DNA of 64,000 nucleotides from Roseibacillus sp. (GTDB taxonomy: Bacteria; Verrucomicrobiota; Verrucomicrobiia; Verrucomicrobiales; Akkermansiaceae): contig CBDEUM010000014.1 of the NCBI GenBank assembly GCA_965242925.1, forward strand, positions 192,001-256,000, in the 5' to 3' direction. A program made the translations under genes and the position numbers. The stretch's first letter is position 1; each line of letters starts with the position of its first letter. A model generated the notes under the pieces. That model was not told the origin of the DNA. It did not search any database and saw only the letters and a list, made by a program, of their open reading frames with translations. Below are positions 42,708-57,699 of this stretch, piece after piece.

Positions 42708-45554
42708 ATGCGACTGACCTGCCTTGCTCTCACGCTGGCACTTGCCGCTCCGCTCCCTGCCAATCCGGTCCTCATTCGCGAGACCGGCCCGCTCACGCCG
42801 GAGGAGGAACTCAGGGGGTTCAGCGTTCCGGACGATTTCGAGGTGCAACTCTTCGCAGCGGAGCCCATGATCAACAAGCCCATCAACCTGGCTTGGGATG
42901 GAAAGGGACGACTATGGGTATCATCCACGGTGGAGTATCCCTATGCCGCAGGAAAAGACAGATGGATCGACGGGGAAGGATCGAAAGTCCGGGACAGCCA
43001 CGACGCCATCAAGATCCTGGAAGATGTCGATGGCGACGGGAAGGCCGACAAGGTGATCGACTTCGCAGAGGGCCTGAACATTCCCACTGGCGTGCTCCCC
43101 TGGCACAAGCCGGAACACAAGAACGGTTGTATTGCCTGGAGCATTCCAAATATCTGGTACTTCGCCGATACCACCGGGGACGGCAAAGCCGACCTGCGTG
43201 AGGTCCTTTTCGGGCCAATGGGTTACGAGCGGGACACCCATGGAATGTGTTCCAGCTTCCGACTTGGATCCGACGGCTGGGTTTACGCCACTCATGGATT
43301 CAACAACACCTCAACTGCCACCGCAAGCGACGGCTCAAGGGTGGAGATGCATTCGGGAAACGTCTTTCGCTTCAAACCGGACGGTTCAAGAATCGAAATC
43401 TGGAGCCGTGGACAGGTCAATCCCTTCGGTCTCTGCTTCGACAAGAGAGGCAATCTCTACAGCGCGGACTGCCACAGTGCCCCGATCTACCAGCTCATTC
43501 GCGGAGCCTACTATCCAAGCTTCGGAAAGCCGCACGACGGGATGGGTTTCGGGCCCACCATGATCCAGCACACCCACGGCTCCACCGGGATCTGCGGAAT
43601 TGTCTTCGTCGATCGCAACCAGTGGGGCCGGCGCTGGAACTACCGCATGCTCATTGGCAACCCGGTCAATTCGGTGATCAACCACGACGGGATCAAATAT
43701 GCCGGCACCACCCCCATCGCGGTGGAGCAACCCGACTTCATGACCAGCAAGGACCCCTGGTTCCGACCGGTCGACCTCTGCCTTGGCGAAGACGGAGCCC
43801 TCTACGTCGCCGACTTTTACAATAAGATCATCGGCCACTACGAAGTTCCACTCGACCATCCGGGCCGGGATCGGGAGCGCGGACGCATCTGGCGTGTGGT
43901 CTACAAGGGCGGAGCGGCTGCCCCCGGCCCCATGACTCTCCCCAAACCCAGTGCCAATCCGGTTGACGACCTCAAGTCCCGGGCCCCCTACACCCGGCGG
44001 GCTGCCGCGGCCCACCTCCAGCAGAACCCCCGGGCCGGAGCCCTGGACCCACTCCTTGAACTTTACTACCGCGAACGTCCCGACGACACCCACCTGCGGC
44101 ACGTGCTCCGGCTTGCAATCCGCGCGCAACTTGGGGTGCCCGCTGCCCTCCAGAGCGAGACGGCGTCCCGGCTCCTGCCCACCAACATCGCCCTCGCAAG
44201 TCACAACCAGCCCACTGCCGCGTTTCTTCTCCAGCGCCTGCAACGTGGCCCACGGCTACGACACACCCTCGAGATTCTCCAGCACCTCGCCCGTCACGGG
44301 GATTCCGGAGTGGTGGAGGGCGCAATCGCATGGGTGAAAACGCAGCATGACCGGCCGGTCCCCGTGCGCGCACGCCAATCAAGTGCCCTGCTGCAGGGCC
44401 TGCAGGAACGCGGCGAGCTGAAACCCCGTGCCTCCCTGGTCCGCCTGGGACAGGAAGTCGCCCACGCTCTCCTCGACGAGGAACGAGAGATCCATTGGAC
44501 GGTAAGCCCTCATCCCACCGATCCCGGGGGAGCTTCACCATGGATCATCCAGCAACGCAGGTGCGGCGACGGAAAAACCGTGGACGTCATCTCCAGTCTC
44601 CCCACTGGAACTCCCGGGGCAGAGACCTTCACCGGGATTCTGCGCACCGTAGCCTTTGAAGCCCCGGCCAGACTGAGTTTCTGGCTCTGCGGTCACCGCG
44701 GGCATCCGGATCAACCTGCTCACGAGAAGAACCTCGTGCGCCTGGTAGAAACGGCAACAGGCAGGGAATTGCACTGCAGCTACCCACCGCGCAACGATGC
44801 CGCCACCCGGATCGAGTGGGATCTCTCCGGCGCAAAGGGCCGCCAGGTGCAGTTGGAGGTGGTGGACGGCGACAATGGCGCTGCCTTCGCCTGGCTGGCG
44901 GTGACACGCCTTGAACCGGAAGTGGCCAAGGTGGAATCATTTGGACCGGCCGGGATTCACAGTGACCTCCTGCAGGAACTCGCCAGCCTGCTCCTGGTCA
45001 GCGCCCCCGTCGACCTGCGCGATCGCCTGCGACCCTTCCTTCCTCCTGCTCCGGCGCCTGCTCCTGCGGCCGTCTCCAAGGAGGAGCGCACCCGGCTCGA
45101 CCAGCTCATCGCACAACGCACGACCTCCTTCGCAGGGATTAGTCCCGACCTGATCCGGGGAAAAGCGCTCTTCAGAACCCACTGTGCCTCCTGCCATCAG
45201 GTGGCTGGCGAGGGCGCTCTCCTCGGTCCCCAACTGGACGGCATTGGGGCCCGGGGTCCTGCCCGGCTGAGCGAGGATATCCTGGACCCCAACCGCAACG
45301 TGGATGCCCACTTTCATCTGACCACCCTGAGGCTCAAGGACGGCACCATCACAACCGGTTTTATCCGTGGGCAATCAGGAGCGATTCTCCTCCTCGTGGA
45401 TCCCGCGAGCAAGGAACACCGACTGCAGAAGGATGCGGTTGAGAGCAGGGAAACCATCCCCCGCTCCCTCATGCCGCCCACCTTCGAGCACCTGCTCAAG
45501 GAGGCCGAATTCAATGATCTCCTGGGCTGGCTTCTCTCTCAGAAGAAGCAGTAA
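42708..45554 (+). CDS. PVC-type membrane-bound dehydrogenase-domain protein with C-terminal c-type heme (CxxCH)
   Basis: FSVPDDFEVQLFAAEP, DVDGDGKAD, NPFG, DPWFRPVD, RERGRIWRV, CASCH...GPQL...ILDPN, SLMP. Confidence 0.93.
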   Translation: MRLTCLALTLALAAPLPANPVLIRETGPLTPEEELRGFSVPDDFEVQLFAAEPMINKPINLAWDGKGRLWVSSTVEYPYAAGKDRWIDGEGSKVRDSHDAIKILEDVDGDGKADKVIDFAEGLNIPTGVLPWHKPEHKNGCIAWSIPNIWYFADTTGDGKADLREVLFGPMGYERDTHGMCSSFRLGSDGWVYATHGFNNTSTATASDGSRVEMHSGNVFRFKPDGSRIEIWSRGQVNPFGLCFDKRGNLYSADCHSAPIYQLIRGAYYPSFGKPHDGMGFGPTMIQHTHGSTGICGIVFVDRNQWGRRWNYRMLIGNPVNSVINHDGIKYAGTTPIAVEQPDFMTSKDPWFRPVDLCLGEDGALYVADFYNKIIGHYEVPLDHPGRDRERGRIWRVVYKGGAAAPGPMTLPKPSANPVDDLKSRAPYTRRAAAAHLQQNPRAGALDPLLELYYRERPDDTHLRHVLRLAIRAQLGVPAALQSETASRLLPTNIALASHNQPTAAFLLQRLQRGPRLRHTLEILQHLARHGDSGVVEGAIAWVKTQHDRPVPVRARQSSALLQGLQERGELKPRASLVRLGQEVAHALLDEEREIHWTVSPHPTDPGGASPWIIQQRRCGDGKTVDVISSLPTGTPGAETFTGILRTVAFEAPARLSFWLCGHRGHPDQPAHEKNLVRLVETATGRELHCSYPPRNDAATRIEWDLSGAKGRQVQLEVVDGDNGAAFAWLAVTRLEPEVAKVESFGPAGIHSDLLQELASLLLVSAPVDLRDRLRPFLPPAPAPAPAAVSKEERTRLDQLIAQRTTSFAGISPDLIRGKALFRTHCASCHQVAGEGALLGPQLDGIGARGPARLSEDILDPNRNVDAHFHLTTLRLKDGTITTGFIRGQSGAILLLVDPASKEHRLQKDAVESRETIPRSLMPPTFEHLLKEAEFNDLLGWLLSQKKQ

Positions 45555-53325: not shown

Positions 53326-53517
53326 CAGGAAGCCGGGTTCAGACCTTGCCAGGCGAGCGGGAATACGGACTCATGGAGAAGCTGGCAGGCTGGGTTTCAG
53401 GAGATATTGGGGGATCCGGAAGAAAAGGATCCAGATGGGACACGGAACGCCATCATCACGTGCATTCCAGTATCACGGCTGATGCAAACATCCAAGATAG
53501 GATATCCAGCCGCCGGA

Positions 53518-54123
53518 CTAGGGAGCCGGGAGAGGTGACTTTCCCCACTCAGCCTTCCGGGACTTCCACTCCTCCAGCCCCGGCGTCATCCATTCTTCCG
53601 GATCCACGCCCAGCCCGTCCGCGATCCGATTGATGTAGTTGAAATAACCTATGACCTGTACCGCGATGGTAAGGGCCTCATCATCAAAACCCTCCTTCCG
53701 GAGGGAAATCAGGTCCGCCGCGCCCGCTTCACCCGGGGAGAGCGTGAGCTTCGCGGCGTAGTCGCAAAGCAACCGGTCGGCAGACGGAAGATCCATTTCG
53801 CGATAGTCGAAGACCAACTGCCGCGCCCCTGCCTCATCGCCCGATTCGCGGCCGAACTCGGCCGCGTGCGAGAGGGTTCAGTAGTAGCAGTCGTTGAGGT
53901 TGCTCACCACCGCTGCCAGCATCTCTCGACGGGCCGCCGAGAGCCCGTTGGGCGATTTCATCAGCTTGAGGTAGAACATCATGGAGCCCTCCAGGGCGGC
54001 AGGTTCCCGGCTCATCACCTTGATGATGTGGGCCACTCCGCCAGCCCGTGTCCGCGCGGATTCGTAAATTCTGGCGAGGGCACCTTCCGCCTCTTCTTCC
54101 GGAACCTGCTCAATATAGGCCAT
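53518..54123 (-). CDS. AhpD/carboxymuconolactone-decarboxylase-like peroxidase, probable selenoprotein (C79-Y-Y-U82)
   Basis: Two track ORFs are in the same frame and joined across TGA 53878-53880: REMLAAVVSNLNDCYY(U)TLSHA...YAAKLT..P...LRKEGFDD...FNYINRIADGLGV. 201 aa in total. Confidence 0.9.
53832..53875 (-). promoter_or_regulatory. Bacterial SECIS-like hairpin just 3' of the in-frame UGA
   Basis: mRNA: UGA-ACCCUCUCGCA (11 nt)-CGCGGCCG-AGUU-CGGCCGCG. 8-bp GC stem, G at loop position 2 followed by U; lower stem CCUC/GAGG and UCGC/GCGA. Confidence 0.8.
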
Positions 54124-54283
54124 GAGGAATCCAACCGCGGATCGTGGCCCATGGCGATCCTGGAAGCAGTTCTCCACAAGCTGCCTTAGGGCACGTCCGC
54201 GGTCGGCCATGCATCCGGTTTTCGGGCAATCGATCCACTAACTTTGAATATTAATTCTCCTTGAATACTTGATCCGCAGGTTT

Positions 54284-54315
54284 TTGACGGCGCAGACCTG
54301 GCAATTGTCATTGCC
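54284..54315 (+). promoter_or_regulatory. Candidate -35 box and palindromic operator upstream of the TPR-exbBD operon
   Basis: TTGACG at 54284-54289; perfect 6-4-6 inverted repeat GGCAAT-TGTC-ATTGCC at 54300-54315, in a divergent intergenic region. Confidence 0.3.
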
Positions 54316-54414
54316 CAGATGAAGATCTCCCGCAAACGACGCGCCCTGCTGGCAGATCCTCTCACCGACAATAGCATCTGTGAGCCCATCCTACCTTTGC
54401 TCCATCATTTCATA

Positions 54415-57400
54415 ATGAGCATGACAGCTCCTGATCAAATGATCAGGGTGTCCCGGATGGTGAGAAGAAGGCAGGGCAGATTCGCAACAGGCGGGGCATT
54501 CCTCCTCGCATTGCTGACGATGCTCCCCGGCCAGATCCAGGCCCAGGGCAAGGATCCTGCCCTTGATCTCTACTACCTCGCCTCCGGTGCCTACAACCGG
54601 AAGCTCTACCCTGCCGCCATCGGCGGATTCCAGGAGTTCCTGCAGAAGAACGCCAAGCACACCAAGGCGGACCAGGCCCGGCAGGGCCTGGCCCTCAGCT
54701 TCTACGCGCAGAAGCAATACGCCCAGGCCATTCCTCACCTCGGCGCCCTCCTGGCCAAGCCCAATCTTCCCAAGGAGATCAGTCGCGACCGCATCATCCT
54801 GATGCAGGGACAGTGTCTCCTGCGCAGCGGCCAGAAGGACCAGGCCCGCGCCCACTTCATCAAGGAGGAAGGCAAGTTGCAAAATCCCGCCTACAAGGCC
54901 TCCGCCCTCGCGGCCATCTGTGACATCTGCTTCGGCAAGCACGAATGGGATCAGGTCAACACCTGGACCGCCAGGCTGGTGCAGGCCAAGGGCACCCCCG
55001 ACCAGATGGCCCGTGGTCTCTATCAGCAGGGCTTCGCGAATTACCAGCTGAAGAAATACGAGAAGGCCGCCGGGATCCTCGAAAAGGTCACCCCCCTCAC
55101 CGCCAACGCCATCTGGAAGACACGGTCCTCCTACCTCCTCGGTGAGTGCTACACCATCGTCAAGAACCACGAGAAGGCCGAGCCCGCATTCGTGGCAGCC
55201 CTCCCGGGCCTGGAGGGCCCCGACAAGACCGAGTGCCACTACCGCCTGGGAGTGACCCGGTTCATCCTGGAGAAGTGGGCTCCGGCCGCGGAAGAGTTCG
55301 AGACCTTCCTGAAAGAGGAGCCCGGAACCCGGGACAAGGAACAGAAGAAGGAGAACCCCTACATCAAGGAATCGCAGCTCTACATCGGGAGATGCCTGCT
55401 GGAGCAGGGAGAGTTCAAAAAGGCCCAGAACCGGCTCTCGGGGTTGATCAACGTGGACAGCCCGTTGGGAGCCAAGGCCAACCTGTGGTTCGCCCGCGTT
55501 TTTTCGCGTCCGGAGAAGCCAAATTACGATCAGGCCGCCGCCTCCCTGGAGCCTGCGGTCAAGAAATACCAGAAATTCGCTCCCTTCAACGACGACCTGC
55601 GCTTCGATTATGCCAACGCCCTGATGAGCCGCAACAACCCCGACTGGAAGACCGCGGCCCAGGCGCTGGGACAGATCAACGGTGGGGTCTTCGGCCAGTT
55701 CGCGGAGGTTCTCGCCCAGCGGGCCACCTGCTACCACAAGCTCAAGGACTACAACACGAGCCTGAACCTGGCCAACGAGTACCTGGCCAAGTTCAAGGAC
55801 CATGAGATGGCTGGGGACACCCGTTTCCTGCGGGCCGAGAACATGTTCCTGCTCAACCAGCTCGATAACGCCATCAAGGCCTACCAGGAGTACCTGGCCG
55901 CAGACAAGGAGCACCCCCACACTCTTGCCGCAGCCTTCCGGGTGGCCCAGATCCACCACCACCAGGATCGCTGGGATCAATCCCTGGCCGCCGCCACACC
56001 ACTCCTGGCCAAGAAGCCGGAGGGTCCCCTCTTCGCCCAGCTCGCCTTCCTGGTGGGCAACTGCCACTTCCGCAAGGAGCAGTGGAAGGAATGCCTGGAA
56101 CCGCTGGAAGCCTTCGTGGCCACCCGGGTGCAGAAGAAAGGCAACAACCAGCAGGTCACTGCCGACCCCAATGTGGACACCGCGCTCATCCAGCTCGCGG
56201 TCGCCTACGACCGCACCGAGGATTCCATCAAGGCCCTTGAGCACCTCGAGACCCTCACCCGCTTCTACCCCAAGCCCACTCCGCACCTGCCCCTGGCTCT
56301 CGCCGAGCAGGGACGGCTTGCCTACCAGCAGGAGAACCTTTCCCTGGCAAGGCAGTCCCTCGAGCGCTTCCTCAACGAGGACAAACAGAACAAGGAACCC
56401 TTCAAGAGCGGGGCCCCGCCCCAACGGTTCCGGGTGAATTACTTCCTCGGCTGGATCAATGCCACCGAGAAAAAGCATGAGCCGGCTGCGCTGCACTTTG
56501 GTGCGGTTTCCAGGCACCACCAGCACGACCTGGCCCCGGATGCCGCCCTGCAGGAGGGCCTCGCCTACGTCTACCTCGAAAAGTTCGACCAGGCCGCGAC
56601 CCTGTTTCCGCAGATCCTCCAACGCTACCCGAAACACGAGAAGCTCCAGCGCGTCACCTACTACGCCGGACTCTCGCTCGCCCGACTGGAGAAGTGGGGA
56701 CCGGCCGCCGGCCACCTGCGCAAGGTGGCCGATACCTGGCCGGATTCCGAGTTCGCAGACCAGGCGCTCTACGAGTGGGCGTGGTGCGAACGCAAGCAGA
56801 AGCGGGAGACCGAGGCGGTCAAACTCTACGAACGCTTCCTGGCCAAATACAAGCAGAGCGCCCTCGTGATCAAGGTGCAGAGCGAGCTTGCCGGACTCAA
56901 CCTCAAGAGCGGCGCCCAGGACATGGTCATCGAGCGCCTCACCAAGGCGCTTGGGGAGGTCAAGGACGACGCCCTCAAGGAAGACCTGCGCTACCAACTG
57001 GCCAGCGCCCATTTTAGCAAGGGCGAATACGAAAAATCCGCCGGCATGTTTGAGCAACTCCTCAACGACTACCCCAAGTCCAAGCTCAAGGCCTCCATGT
57101 GCTTCCAGGCCGGGGAATCACGCTACAAACTGAAGGAGACCGTGACCGCCCGCGGACACTTCGCCGAGGGCATGAAGGCGAGCGGTCTCCAACCCGCCAT
57201 CGCCGAGTCCATGATGATGCGCCTCGCTGAAATGCAGTCCGCCACCGCCGATCACACCGGTGCTCGCAAAACCTATCAGGACTTCATCGGACGTTTTCCG
57301 GAAAGCAAATGGAGGCGCAACGCCCAGTTCGGACTGGCCTGGTCCCTTGAGAATTCGGACAAGCCCAACGACGCCATCCACCACTATGCCCCTCTCCTCG

Positions 57401-57699
57401 ACCCGAAGACCCCCATTGACCTCTGGACTGTGAGGGCCCGCTTCCAGACCGGAGAGTGCTACTTCAACATGCAGAAGTACGAACAGGCCGTGAAGGAGTT
57501 CCTCAACGTCGAAATTCACTACAAGAAGCATCCCGGCTGGCAGGCCAAGGGGATCCTCGAAATCGGCCGGGTTCTCCTCGCCCAGAACAAACGCGAGGAC
57601 GCCAAGCAGCGCTTCAAGGATGTCATCATCCGCTACCCGAAGCAAAAGGCGGCCATCGTCGCGCGCCAGTACCTCGATCAACTCCGCACCAACGGATAA
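54415..57699 (+). CDS. Large exported TPR-repeat protein (CpoB/BamD-like repeats)
   Basis: Signal-peptide-like FLLALLTMLPGQIQA, then many Y..A...F..FL..YP-type TPR units over about 1050 aa. Exact start uncertain (54415-54457). Confidence 0.88.
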   Translation: MSMTAPDQMIRVSRMVRRRQGRFATGGAFLLALLTMLPGQIQAQGKDPALDLYYLASGAYNRKLYPAAIGGFQEFLQKNAKHTKADQARQGLALSFYAQKQYAQAIPHLGALLAKPNLPKEISRDRIILMQGQCLLRSGQKDQARAHFIKEEGKLQNPAYKASALAAICDICFGKHEWDQVNTWTARLVQAKGTPDQMARGLYQQGFANYQLKKYEKAAGILEKVTPLTANAIWKTRSSYLLGECYTIVKNHEKAEPAFVAALPGLEGPDKTECHYRLGVTRFILEKWAPAAEEFETFLKEEPGTRDKEQKKENPYIKESQLYIGRCLLEQGEFKKAQNRLSGLINVDSPLGAKANLWFARVFSRPEKPNYDQAAASLEPAVKKYQKFAPFNDDLRFDYANALMSRNNPDWKTAAQALGQINGGVFGQFAEVLAQRATCYHKLKDYNTSLNLANEYLAKFKDHEMAGDTRFLRAENMFLLNQLDNAIKAYQEYLAADKEHPHTLAAAFRVAQIHHHQDRWDQSLAAATPLLAKKPEGPLFAQLAFLVGNCHFRKEQWKECLEPLEAFVATRVQKKGNNQQVTADPNVDTALIQLAVAYDRTEDSIKALEHLETLTRFYPKPTPHLPLALAEQGRLAYQQENLSLARQSLERFLNEDKQNKEPFKSGAPPQRFRVNYFLGWINATEKKHEPAALHFGAVSRHHQHDLAPDAALQEGLAYVYLEKFDQAATLFPQILQRYPKHEKLQRVTYYAGLSLARLEKWGPAAGHLRKVADTWPDSEFADQALYEWAWCERKQKRETEAVKLYERFLAKYKQSALVIKVQSELAGLNLKSGAQDMVIERLTKALGEVKDDALKEDLRYQLASAHFSKGEYEKSAGMFEQLLNDYPKSKLKASMCFQAGESRYKLKETVTARGHFAEGMKASGLQPAIAESMMMRLAEMQSATADHTGARKTYQDFIGRFPESKWRRNAQFGLAWSLENSDKPNDAIHHYAPLLDPKTPIDLWTVRARFQTGECYFNMQKYEQAVKEFLNVEIHYKKHPGWQAKGILEIGRVLLAQNKREDAKQRFKDVIIRYPKQKAAIVARQYLDQLRTNG

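Follow-up and report, generated by a model that had tools for sequence, protein, structure and literature searches.

A further AhpD-like CxxU selenoprotein gene, very probably translated across an in-frame UGA, in a Roseibacillus genome

A single reading frame across an in-frame UGA

Does the UGA codon within an AhpD-like gene end the protein, or is it read as selenocysteine (Sec)? The question is raised by positions 53518..54123, on the minus strand, of a 64,000-nucleotide stretch of DNA from Roseibacillus sp., a genus assigned to Verrucomicrobiota (assembly GCA_965242925.1, contig CBDEUM010000014.1, positions 192,001 to 256,000); this whole stretch is referred to below as the window. An earlier note on the same DNA had proposed that two adjoining open reading frames (ORFs) hide one selenoprotein gene. 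The locus very probably encodes one 201-residue AhpD-like "peroxidase-related enzyme" (TIGR01926, COG2128) with its UGA recoded; it is a further member of a known selenoprotein family, and the recoding itself is not new. The features on which the argument depends are as follows.

53518..54123, minus strand: complete coding sequence (CDS) of the putative AhpD-like selenoprotein, 606 nt, 201 residues plus stop, with one in-frame TGA
53878..53880, minus strand: UGA predicted to be read as selenocysteine, U82 of the 201-aa protein, the second position of C79-Y-Y-U82
53866..53925, minus strand: active-site segment E67-x11-C79-x2-U82-x3-H86, an AhpD-type proton-relay motif as read from the sequence
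53923-53925, 53887-53889, 53878-53880 and 53866-53868, minus strand: codons of the active-site residues Glu67, Cys79, Sec82 and His86, respectively
53847..53866, minus strand: predicted hairpin resembling a selenocysteine insertion sequence (SECIS), within the CDS and starting 11 nt past the UGA

The two ORFs, 53878..54210 (110 aa, terminated by the TGA at 53878-53880) and 53518..53817 (99 aa), both on the minus strand, share one frame (54210-53817 = 393 = 131 x 3), and the 20 codons between that TGA and the TTG at 53817 contain zero stops. The coordinates and frame arithmetic of the earlier note, with two ORFs split only by the TGA and a joined product of 201 aa, were thereby confirmed. The CDS runs from an ATG at 54123 (MAYIEQ...) to a TAG stop at 53518-53520, and the read-through peptide around the TGA is ...NLNDCYY[TGA]TLSHAAEFGR..., that is, ...AAVVSNLNDCYY-U-TLSHAAEFGRESG... 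The start is kept across orthologs as MAYI or GTG-AYI (VAYI), and the sequence upstream of it diverges; thus, as judged from sequence comparison, the longer ORF beginning at 54210 is probably not the one used. A promoter and terminator scan returned zero promoter-like sites and one terminator-like site within the CDS, which equals chance expectation and is uninformative.

Family, active site, and fold

The read-through product matched the NCBIfam model TIGR01926 ("peroxidase-related enzyme") at 135.9 bits against a cut-off of 81.8, from residue 33 to 205 of the 230-aa read-through and from position 3 to 176 of the 178 in the profile, so that the match crosses the TGA; the assignment to AhpD/CMD-like peroxidases in the earlier note held. 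Pfam CMD (22.8 bits, cut-off 23) and the AhpD core-domain model TIGR00778 (26.4 bits, cut-off 27.8) both scored slightly under their thresholds. Membership in NF041238 AhpD_rel_CFYUT (68.2 bits, cut-off 175) or NF053654 YciW-related (28.5 bits, cut-off 310) was ruled out, with scores far under the cut-offs.

The proton relay has been described as Glu118/Cys130/Cys133/His137 in Mycobacterium tuberculosis AhpD and as Glu36/Cys48/Tyr50/Cys51/His55 in PA0269 (PMC3141380). The window residues E67/C79/(Y81)/U82/H86 equal both in spacing and residue set, and columns E67, C79, Y81, and H86 are invariant in alignment A3. A profile built from 15 homologs and searched against the PDB found 6K40 at E 4.3e-45, together with 2PFX, 3C1L, 2OYO, and 2PRR; in this search, 2PFX, 3C1L, 2OYO, and 6K40 have Cys in the Sec column, and the printed alignments set NRCVYCAVSH of 6K40 and NKCFYCLVAH of 2PFX opposite the window TGA. 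The UGA therefore falls on the second redox cysteine of CxxC, as had been proposed.

An AlphaFold2 model of the protein (predicted local distance difference test, pLDDT, 88.5; predicted template-modeling score, pTM, 0.84) is all-helical with ten helices. Its top fold matches were 6K40, 2OYO, 3C1L, 2PRR, and 2PFX, with template-modeling (TM) scores of 0.78-0.88, and the best of them was 6K40 (TM 0.81/0.87, root-mean-square deviation 1.7 A). His86 and the helices from H80-94 to H183-193 are encoded downstream of the TGA.

Conservation of the TGA and of the frame beyond it

Relatives were sought in 41 related genomes, the window's own among them, and in genome contigs (genome_contigs), from which the best 80 of at least 560 related loci were kept. 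Of the 19 other genomes in the genus, 11 yielded orthologs with 67-95% identity; counting the window's own locus, all 12 genus loci (67-100% identity) have TGA at this codon, as does L031, a homolog with 32% identity that belongs to a different family of the same order. Three remoter homologs among the 41 genomes have TGT or TGC at the site, a Cys codon (TGT/TGC) being read in L033, L035, L036, and L114, and the motif is absent from L032, a weak match among the related genomes. Alignment of homologs, which the earlier note had suggested as a check, thus recovered the Cys/UGA pairing with both forms represented, and the contrary case that it had named, close homologs that never carry UGA, did not occur, all 11 same-genus orthologs having it. 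Among the best 80 loci, 79 have a stop at the site (65 TGA by codon check, 14 a stop in translation) and one has TGC, a count that the search and ranking of the loci bias toward the Sec clade of the query itself; TGG occurs in none of them. Together with the genus loci, this pattern greatly exceeds what chance would produce. The records are titled Planctomycetota, Verrucomicrobiota, Acidobacteriota, Actinomycetota, Chloroflexota, Gemmatimonadota, Latescibacterota, and others, and the nearest named ones are Roseibacillus sp. metagenome-assembled genomes at 87% and 80% identity.

Substitutions were analyzed in 10 orthologs, with L027 left out for its Ns, L030 for its frameshift, and L031 for its distance. 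Pairwise differences at the first, second, and third codon positions numbered 556/403/1613 over the 80 codons upstream of the TGA and 697/677/2293 over the 105 codons downstream; third-position changes start at the first codon past the TGA, and no start codon is found for 20 codons. Taken together, this pattern and the missing start codon argue that the downstream half is translated in this frame. The conserved start and 116-128 open codons past the TGA were found in 11 of the 12 genus loci, the copy in genome G010 being frameshifted. This G010 ortholog (L030/L034, G010:C87:5187-5784) has its frameshift approximately 55 codons past the TGA, as well as a G-A mismatch in the hairpin; it is decaying or has been misassembled.

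The stretch is covered in full by contigs from two independent public DNA runs; 53878-53880 is unchanged in them, and the TGC or TGT that the earlier note had listed as adverse evidence, if seen in reads, did not appear in these contigs. A 151-nt metatranscriptome contig (53828-53978) bridges the TGA with 0 differences, with DNA carry-over in the RNA library being possible; the RNA contigs of runs X15 and X17 leave parts of the stretch uncovered and are uninformative either way.

Database entries at the Sec site

The window's protein was aligned with 22 of 47 database matches (23 rows). Four rows are C-terminal fragments that start right past the Sec site, and 13 have W at the site (CxYW), e.g., P0004, P0005, P0007, P0009, and P0010; Cys occupies the Sec column in four database homologs (P0002, P0003, P0006, and P0028). 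Because TGG was found in none of the 80 genome loci, the W entries are most likely TGA translated under a Trp code, and these entries and the C-terminal fragments are probably a systematic annotation artifact of the family. The prediction that gene callers would split the gene is reflected in these same rows (4/23 fragments, 13/23 with W). The practical value of the locus lies in annotation, the gene being otherwise called as two fragments or with an active-site Trp.

A SECIS-like hairpin within the coding sequence

The predicted hairpin has an 8-bp stem, 53859-53866 pairing with 53847-53854 (CGCGGCCG/CGGCCGCG), and the loop AGUU at 53855-53858. The UGA-to-stem spacing of 11 nt is equal to that of the minimal SECIS of Escherichia coli fdhF. 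An 86-nt fold reached -40.8 kcal/mol (z -2.85) and a 45-nt fold -21.4 kcal/mol (z -2.24), with 5 of 200 shuffles equally good in the latter case. Bacterial SECIS elements have been characterized as stem-loops a short distance past the UGA whose small apical loop contains G (PMC1088965), and the window hairpin, with its 8-bp stem, AGUU loop, and 11-nt spacer, is predicted to have this form.

Among the 12 genus sequences, stem changes are mostly from G-C to G-U, with pairing kept, and four alignment cells break stem pairs (two in L030, which is frameshifted, and one in each of L021 and L025). L031, which is distant, has its own, different 7-bp stem with the loop GUU in the same place. When the best hairpin of each of 67 Sec-form sequences is taken, 64 have the loop center 20-32 nt from the UGA, 61 loops include a G, and 51 have a stem of at least 5 bp. 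The window's loop lies 23-26 nt from the UGA, and those of most other sampled members at 28-33 or 21-23 nt. It appears that at least three registers of the in-frame SECIS hairpin have arisen within the family by rebuilding, the encoded helix being retained; if true, this is a natural case of a coding sequence and a SECIS element evolving together.

Selenocysteine machinery and stop-codon usage

The genome assembly comprises 4.58 Mb in 42 contigs (89.87% complete, 60.1% GC). A tRNA-Sec with anticodon UCA is encoded at G000:C30:304340-304429 (59 bits on RF01852, cut-off 47; SeC(tca) by ARAGORN), selB as a 653-aa ORF on C34 (TIGR00475, 287.5 bits, cut-off 242.25), and selD at G000:C14:573853-574776 on the plus strand (L017; TIGR00476, 366.6 bits, cut-off 125). 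The selD gene is itself a selenoprotein gene, with one classical in-frame TGA in its N-terminal part (...SSCAG[TGA]ASKLGQ...). TGA is the commonest stop, ending 915 of 1908 long non-overlapping ORFs, and the genome is therefore one without a TGA-sense code. The proposal that the UGA is recoded as Sec, and with it Sec use in a verrucomicrobium, was supported by the conservation of the TGA and by the presence of tRNA-Sec, selB, and selD; from these we infer that selenium is actually inserted.

Several observations weigh against reading the locus as a recoded AhpD-like enzyme, beginning with the Sec machinery. The earlier note had called for a search of the sel genes; tRNA-Sec (UCA), selB, and selD turned up as described, whereas selA was not found in the 89.87%-complete assembly with TIGR00474, PF03841, or a tblastn search using the SelA of a same-genus genome. 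The likeliest account of this gap is a missing contig, through either assembly or binning: selA is present in 18 of the 19 other genus genomes, and in the closest relative (G008) selA is surrounded by 16 kb that have no counterpart in the window's genome, where a control locus aligns at 91.5% over 3293 nt. Within the order, 31 of the 101 genomes sampled, and 16 of the 31 genera, have selA; its distribution is patchy, and Sec use there is common. Separately, in g3, another genus of the family to which the window belongs, selA was detected in none of the 23 genomes, which are 2-3 Mb in size.

The hairpin adds further adverse points. Its energy in the window is only moderately better than that of shuffles (z -2.24 and -2.85), and the hairpins of several family members are insignificant by the same measure (z -2.04 to +0.80). 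Within the genus, no true compensatory stem changes were seen, only wobble pairs, and since the hairpin lies within a conserved CDS, its conservation there stems partly from protein constraint. RNAalifold gave no single consensus structure for the 67 Sec-form sequences because subgroups place the hairpin in different registers, and per-sequence folds were used. An Rfam scan of 53400-54300 with E up to 10 returned only a chance snoRNA match of 13.2 bits. To these are added the clade bias of the genome-locus count given above; the 8 of 19 other genus genomes that gave no ortholog, so that the gene is dispensable; the excess of Cys forms over Sec forms of "AhpD-like 1" in the Global Ocean Sampling (GOS) data (902 versus 299; PMC2398784); and the finding that no peroxiredoxin or reductase gene adjoins the AhpD-like gene.

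Proposed mechanism and function

The hairpin 11 nt past the UGA would act as a bacterial SECIS element and recruit SelB with Sec-tRNA(Sec) (anticodon UCA), and Sec would be inserted so that the UGA is no stop; selenophosphate would be supplied by SelD, itself predicted to be a selenoprotein here. The product would be an all-helical thiol/selenol oxidoreductase. In M. tuberculosis AhpD, the nucleophilic attack is made by the second residue of CxxC. If the window's protein works as AhpD-type enzymes do, the selenolate at the equivalent position would attack, Cys79 would resolve the selenenylsulfide, and Glu67, His86, and one water would form the proton relay.

A Deinococcus radiodurans mutant without the AhpD-like protein is more sensitive to H2O2, and CxxC variants complement it poorly (PMC8945050). 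From this analogy, hydroperoxide detoxification in an oxygenated marine setting, or else re-reduction of a peroxiredoxin-type partner there, is the likeliest role, at roughly an even chance. That the protein might instead be a selenol-dependent reductase for another marine substrate, e.g., halogenated or other organo-element compounds, as is the fold relative Bmp8, and have no part in peroxide defense, is improbable.

Alternative explanations

If the UGA mostly or always terminated, the locus would yield an 81-residue N-terminal fragment, and the downstream part would be a separate gene or a relic. Standard callers do list two ORFs, C-terminal fragments that start past the site are present in databases, and selA was not found in this assembly; moreover, bacterial Sec insertion competes with RF2, and some truncation is expected. 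A single TIGR01926 domain and one compact modeled fold nonetheless span the TGA, codon-level constraint runs unbroken across it with no start codon for 20 codons, the catalytic His86 and the helices from H80-94 to H183-193 are encoded beyond it, and the TGA is kept at the exact codon across wide divergence, which leaves termination very improbable. A single base change from TGC or TGT to TGA would be enough for a pseudogene or for a sequencing or assembly error, and the G010 ortholog combines a frameshift with a G-A hairpin mismatch; this account is effectively refuted, and its remaining probability is close to nil, by the stop at the codon in all 12 independent assemblies of the genus as well as in 79 of the best 80 among at least 560 loci from many phyla, by two independent public runs showing no variant at the codon, and by the purifying-selection pattern of substitutions downstream. 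Decoding of the UGA as Trp, Gly, or Cys, through a variant code or near-cognate read-through, could point to the W in 13 of the 23 aligned rows, yet that W is best explained, as we infer, by gene calling with a TGA=Trp table, TGG occurs in none of the best 80 of at least 560 loci, TGA is a normal stop (915/1908 long ORFs), the homologous residue is a redox Cys, and tRNA-Sec, selB, and a selD with its own classical TGA are present; decoding as another amino acid is thus extremely improbable.

A further alternative accepts recoding and concerns the substrate: the enzyme could be a selenol-dependent reductase for something other than peroxide, such as a Bmp8-like dehalogenase or a reductase of disulfides or of organoselenium or arsenic compounds. 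This is unlikely, at a level that still deserves attention. The gene has no adjoining ahpC/Prx gene, the model shares its fold with Bmp8 (6OHI/6OHJ) at TM 0.74, with E 3.4e-5 in the profile search, TIGR01926 is named merely "peroxidase-related enzyme," and PMC3141380 describes the substrate sites of AhpD-like family members as unknown. Against it stand the closest solved and genetically tested relative (6K40, 35% identity), which protects against H2O2 in a CxxC-dependent manner, the presence of the full Glu/Cys/Tyr/Cys/His relay of peroxidase-active AhpD-like proteins, and an identity to Bmp8 of just 14-15%.

Relation to known systems

Recoding of the UGA as Sec places the gene in the AhpD-like CxxU family (COG2128/TIGR01926; "AhpD-like 1" of the GOS data), with which it shares the hidden Markov model family, the CxxU motif with Sec in second position, the marine source, and, just past the UGA, a SECIS-like hairpin whose small apical loop contains G. 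Nothing essential differs; the window copy lies in a Roseibacillus-like genome and has another hairpin stem register. The family was described in 2005 from the Sargasso Sea metagenome, with 27 sequences in COG2128 (PMC1088965), ranked as the fourth most abundant selenoprotein family in GOS in 2008 (PMC2398784), is listed as "AhpD-like protein, TIGR01926, CxxU" in a 2026 review (PMC13188914), and has a family page in BSepDB (PMC13326102). The statement of the earlier note that such proteins are known from marine metagenomes is therefore correct (PMC1088965, PMC2398784), and its call and coordinates stand; the significance attached to them does not, the exact family being already listed and Sec machinery being common in the order. 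As family, motif, recoding mechanism, and marine abundance are all in print, no new question is opened. No paper pairing Roseibacillus with selenoproteins was found in a literature search, and "Verrucomicrobia" is absent from the main texts of PMC2398784, PMC13188914, PMC13326102, and PMC5029168, whose supplements may list the phylum.

The D. radiodurans R1 AhpD-like protein (PDB 6K40; DR_1765 in PMC8945050) is the best profile and fold match at 35% identity, similar in length (197 aa) and with the same E-x11-C-x2-C-x3-H site; it differs in having Cys at the second position and a genetically tested role in H2O2 tolerance. M. tuberculosis AhpD, the AhpC-reducing alkylhydroperoxidase, has the same relay residues and a helical CMD-type core but a different chain topology and low overall identity, and its gene shares an operon with ahpC (PMC3141380), a neighbor that the window gene lacks. 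NF041238 AhpD_rel_CFYUT and NF053654 YciW-related are related AhpD-superfamily selenoproteins with Sec at the CxxU position. The debrominase Bmp8 (PDB 6OHI/6OHJ) is a thiol-dependent dehalogenase of the CMD fold; it has that fold in common with the modeled protein (TM 0.74) and uses a catalytic Cys in the same helical hairpin, but at 14-15% identity and with other chemistry and substrate it is a lead for an alternative function only.

Other candidate selenoproteins of the genome

The genome was scanned for TGA codons flanked by coding-like sequence, with a redox motif and a downstream hairpin; thresholds were relaxed since the initial ones missed both known genes, and 22 candidates were searched against NCBIfam. 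Sixteen of the 22 had no NCBIfam family match, and most of these resemble antisense frames or frames open by chance, as a GC content of 60% produces. The only other candidate within the window, 44256-44513 on the minus strand, likewise had no NCBIfam family match and was rejected. The following loci were listed.

C13:44934-45152 (L127), minus strand: SelW/SelT/SelH-like gene, 72 aa, CAQ[TGA] near the N-terminus; TIGR02174, 52.2 bits, cut-off 34.2
C22:23092-23835 (L122), plus strand: thioredoxin-fold gene, SASW[TGA]xxC, ResA/DsbE-like with weak family matches
C14:613191-613760 and 613819-614538 (L123), plus strand: tandem thioredoxin-fold genes, SASW[TGA]xxC, ResA/DsbE-like with weak matches
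C39:27373-27741, plus strand: HMA/CopZ-like UxxC candidate, GVT[TGA]AGC, weak family matches only
C12:63994-64845, plus strand: candidate with TT[TGA]GSC, a UGSC-type motif, no family match
C34:19389-19757, minus strand: candidate of 121 aa, FDG[TGA]VLC, no family match
C14:407019-407378, minus strand: AhpC-TSA match, 90 bits, with one TGA inside

The SelW-like gene has TGA in 9 of 9 genus matches. All three thioredoxin-fold UxxC genes bear signal peptides; such genes were found in 19 of the 20 genomes of the genus, where two or three frequently lie in tandem, and TGA was found in 48 of 48 genus-wide matches covering the site. The genome holds 16 AhpC-TSA matches, one of them with a TGA and all away from the AhpD-like gene. 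These results suggest that the genus has a small, conserved selenoproteome, under-reported by standard pipelines, and that the redox defense of these marine Verrucomicrobiota is partly selenium-dependent; the same misannotation would affect at least selD, the SelW-like gene, several thioredoxin-fold UxxC genes, and the peroxiredoxin-like gene.

Genomic neighborhood

The divergent neighbor of the AhpD-like gene encodes a 1126-aa TPR protein (54319-57699, plus strand) and is conserved in 10 of 11 other genus loci, with no match at L028. On the same strand, the downstream neighbor encodes a hydrophobic protein of 221 aa that matches nothing in Pfam and is conserved in 5 of 11 other genus loci, and further neighbors are an M28/PDZ peptidase and an amidohydrolase. 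An 888-aa open frame at 54391-57057 on the minus strand lies antisense to the TPR gene and is a shadow ORF typical of a 60% GC genome rather than a gene.

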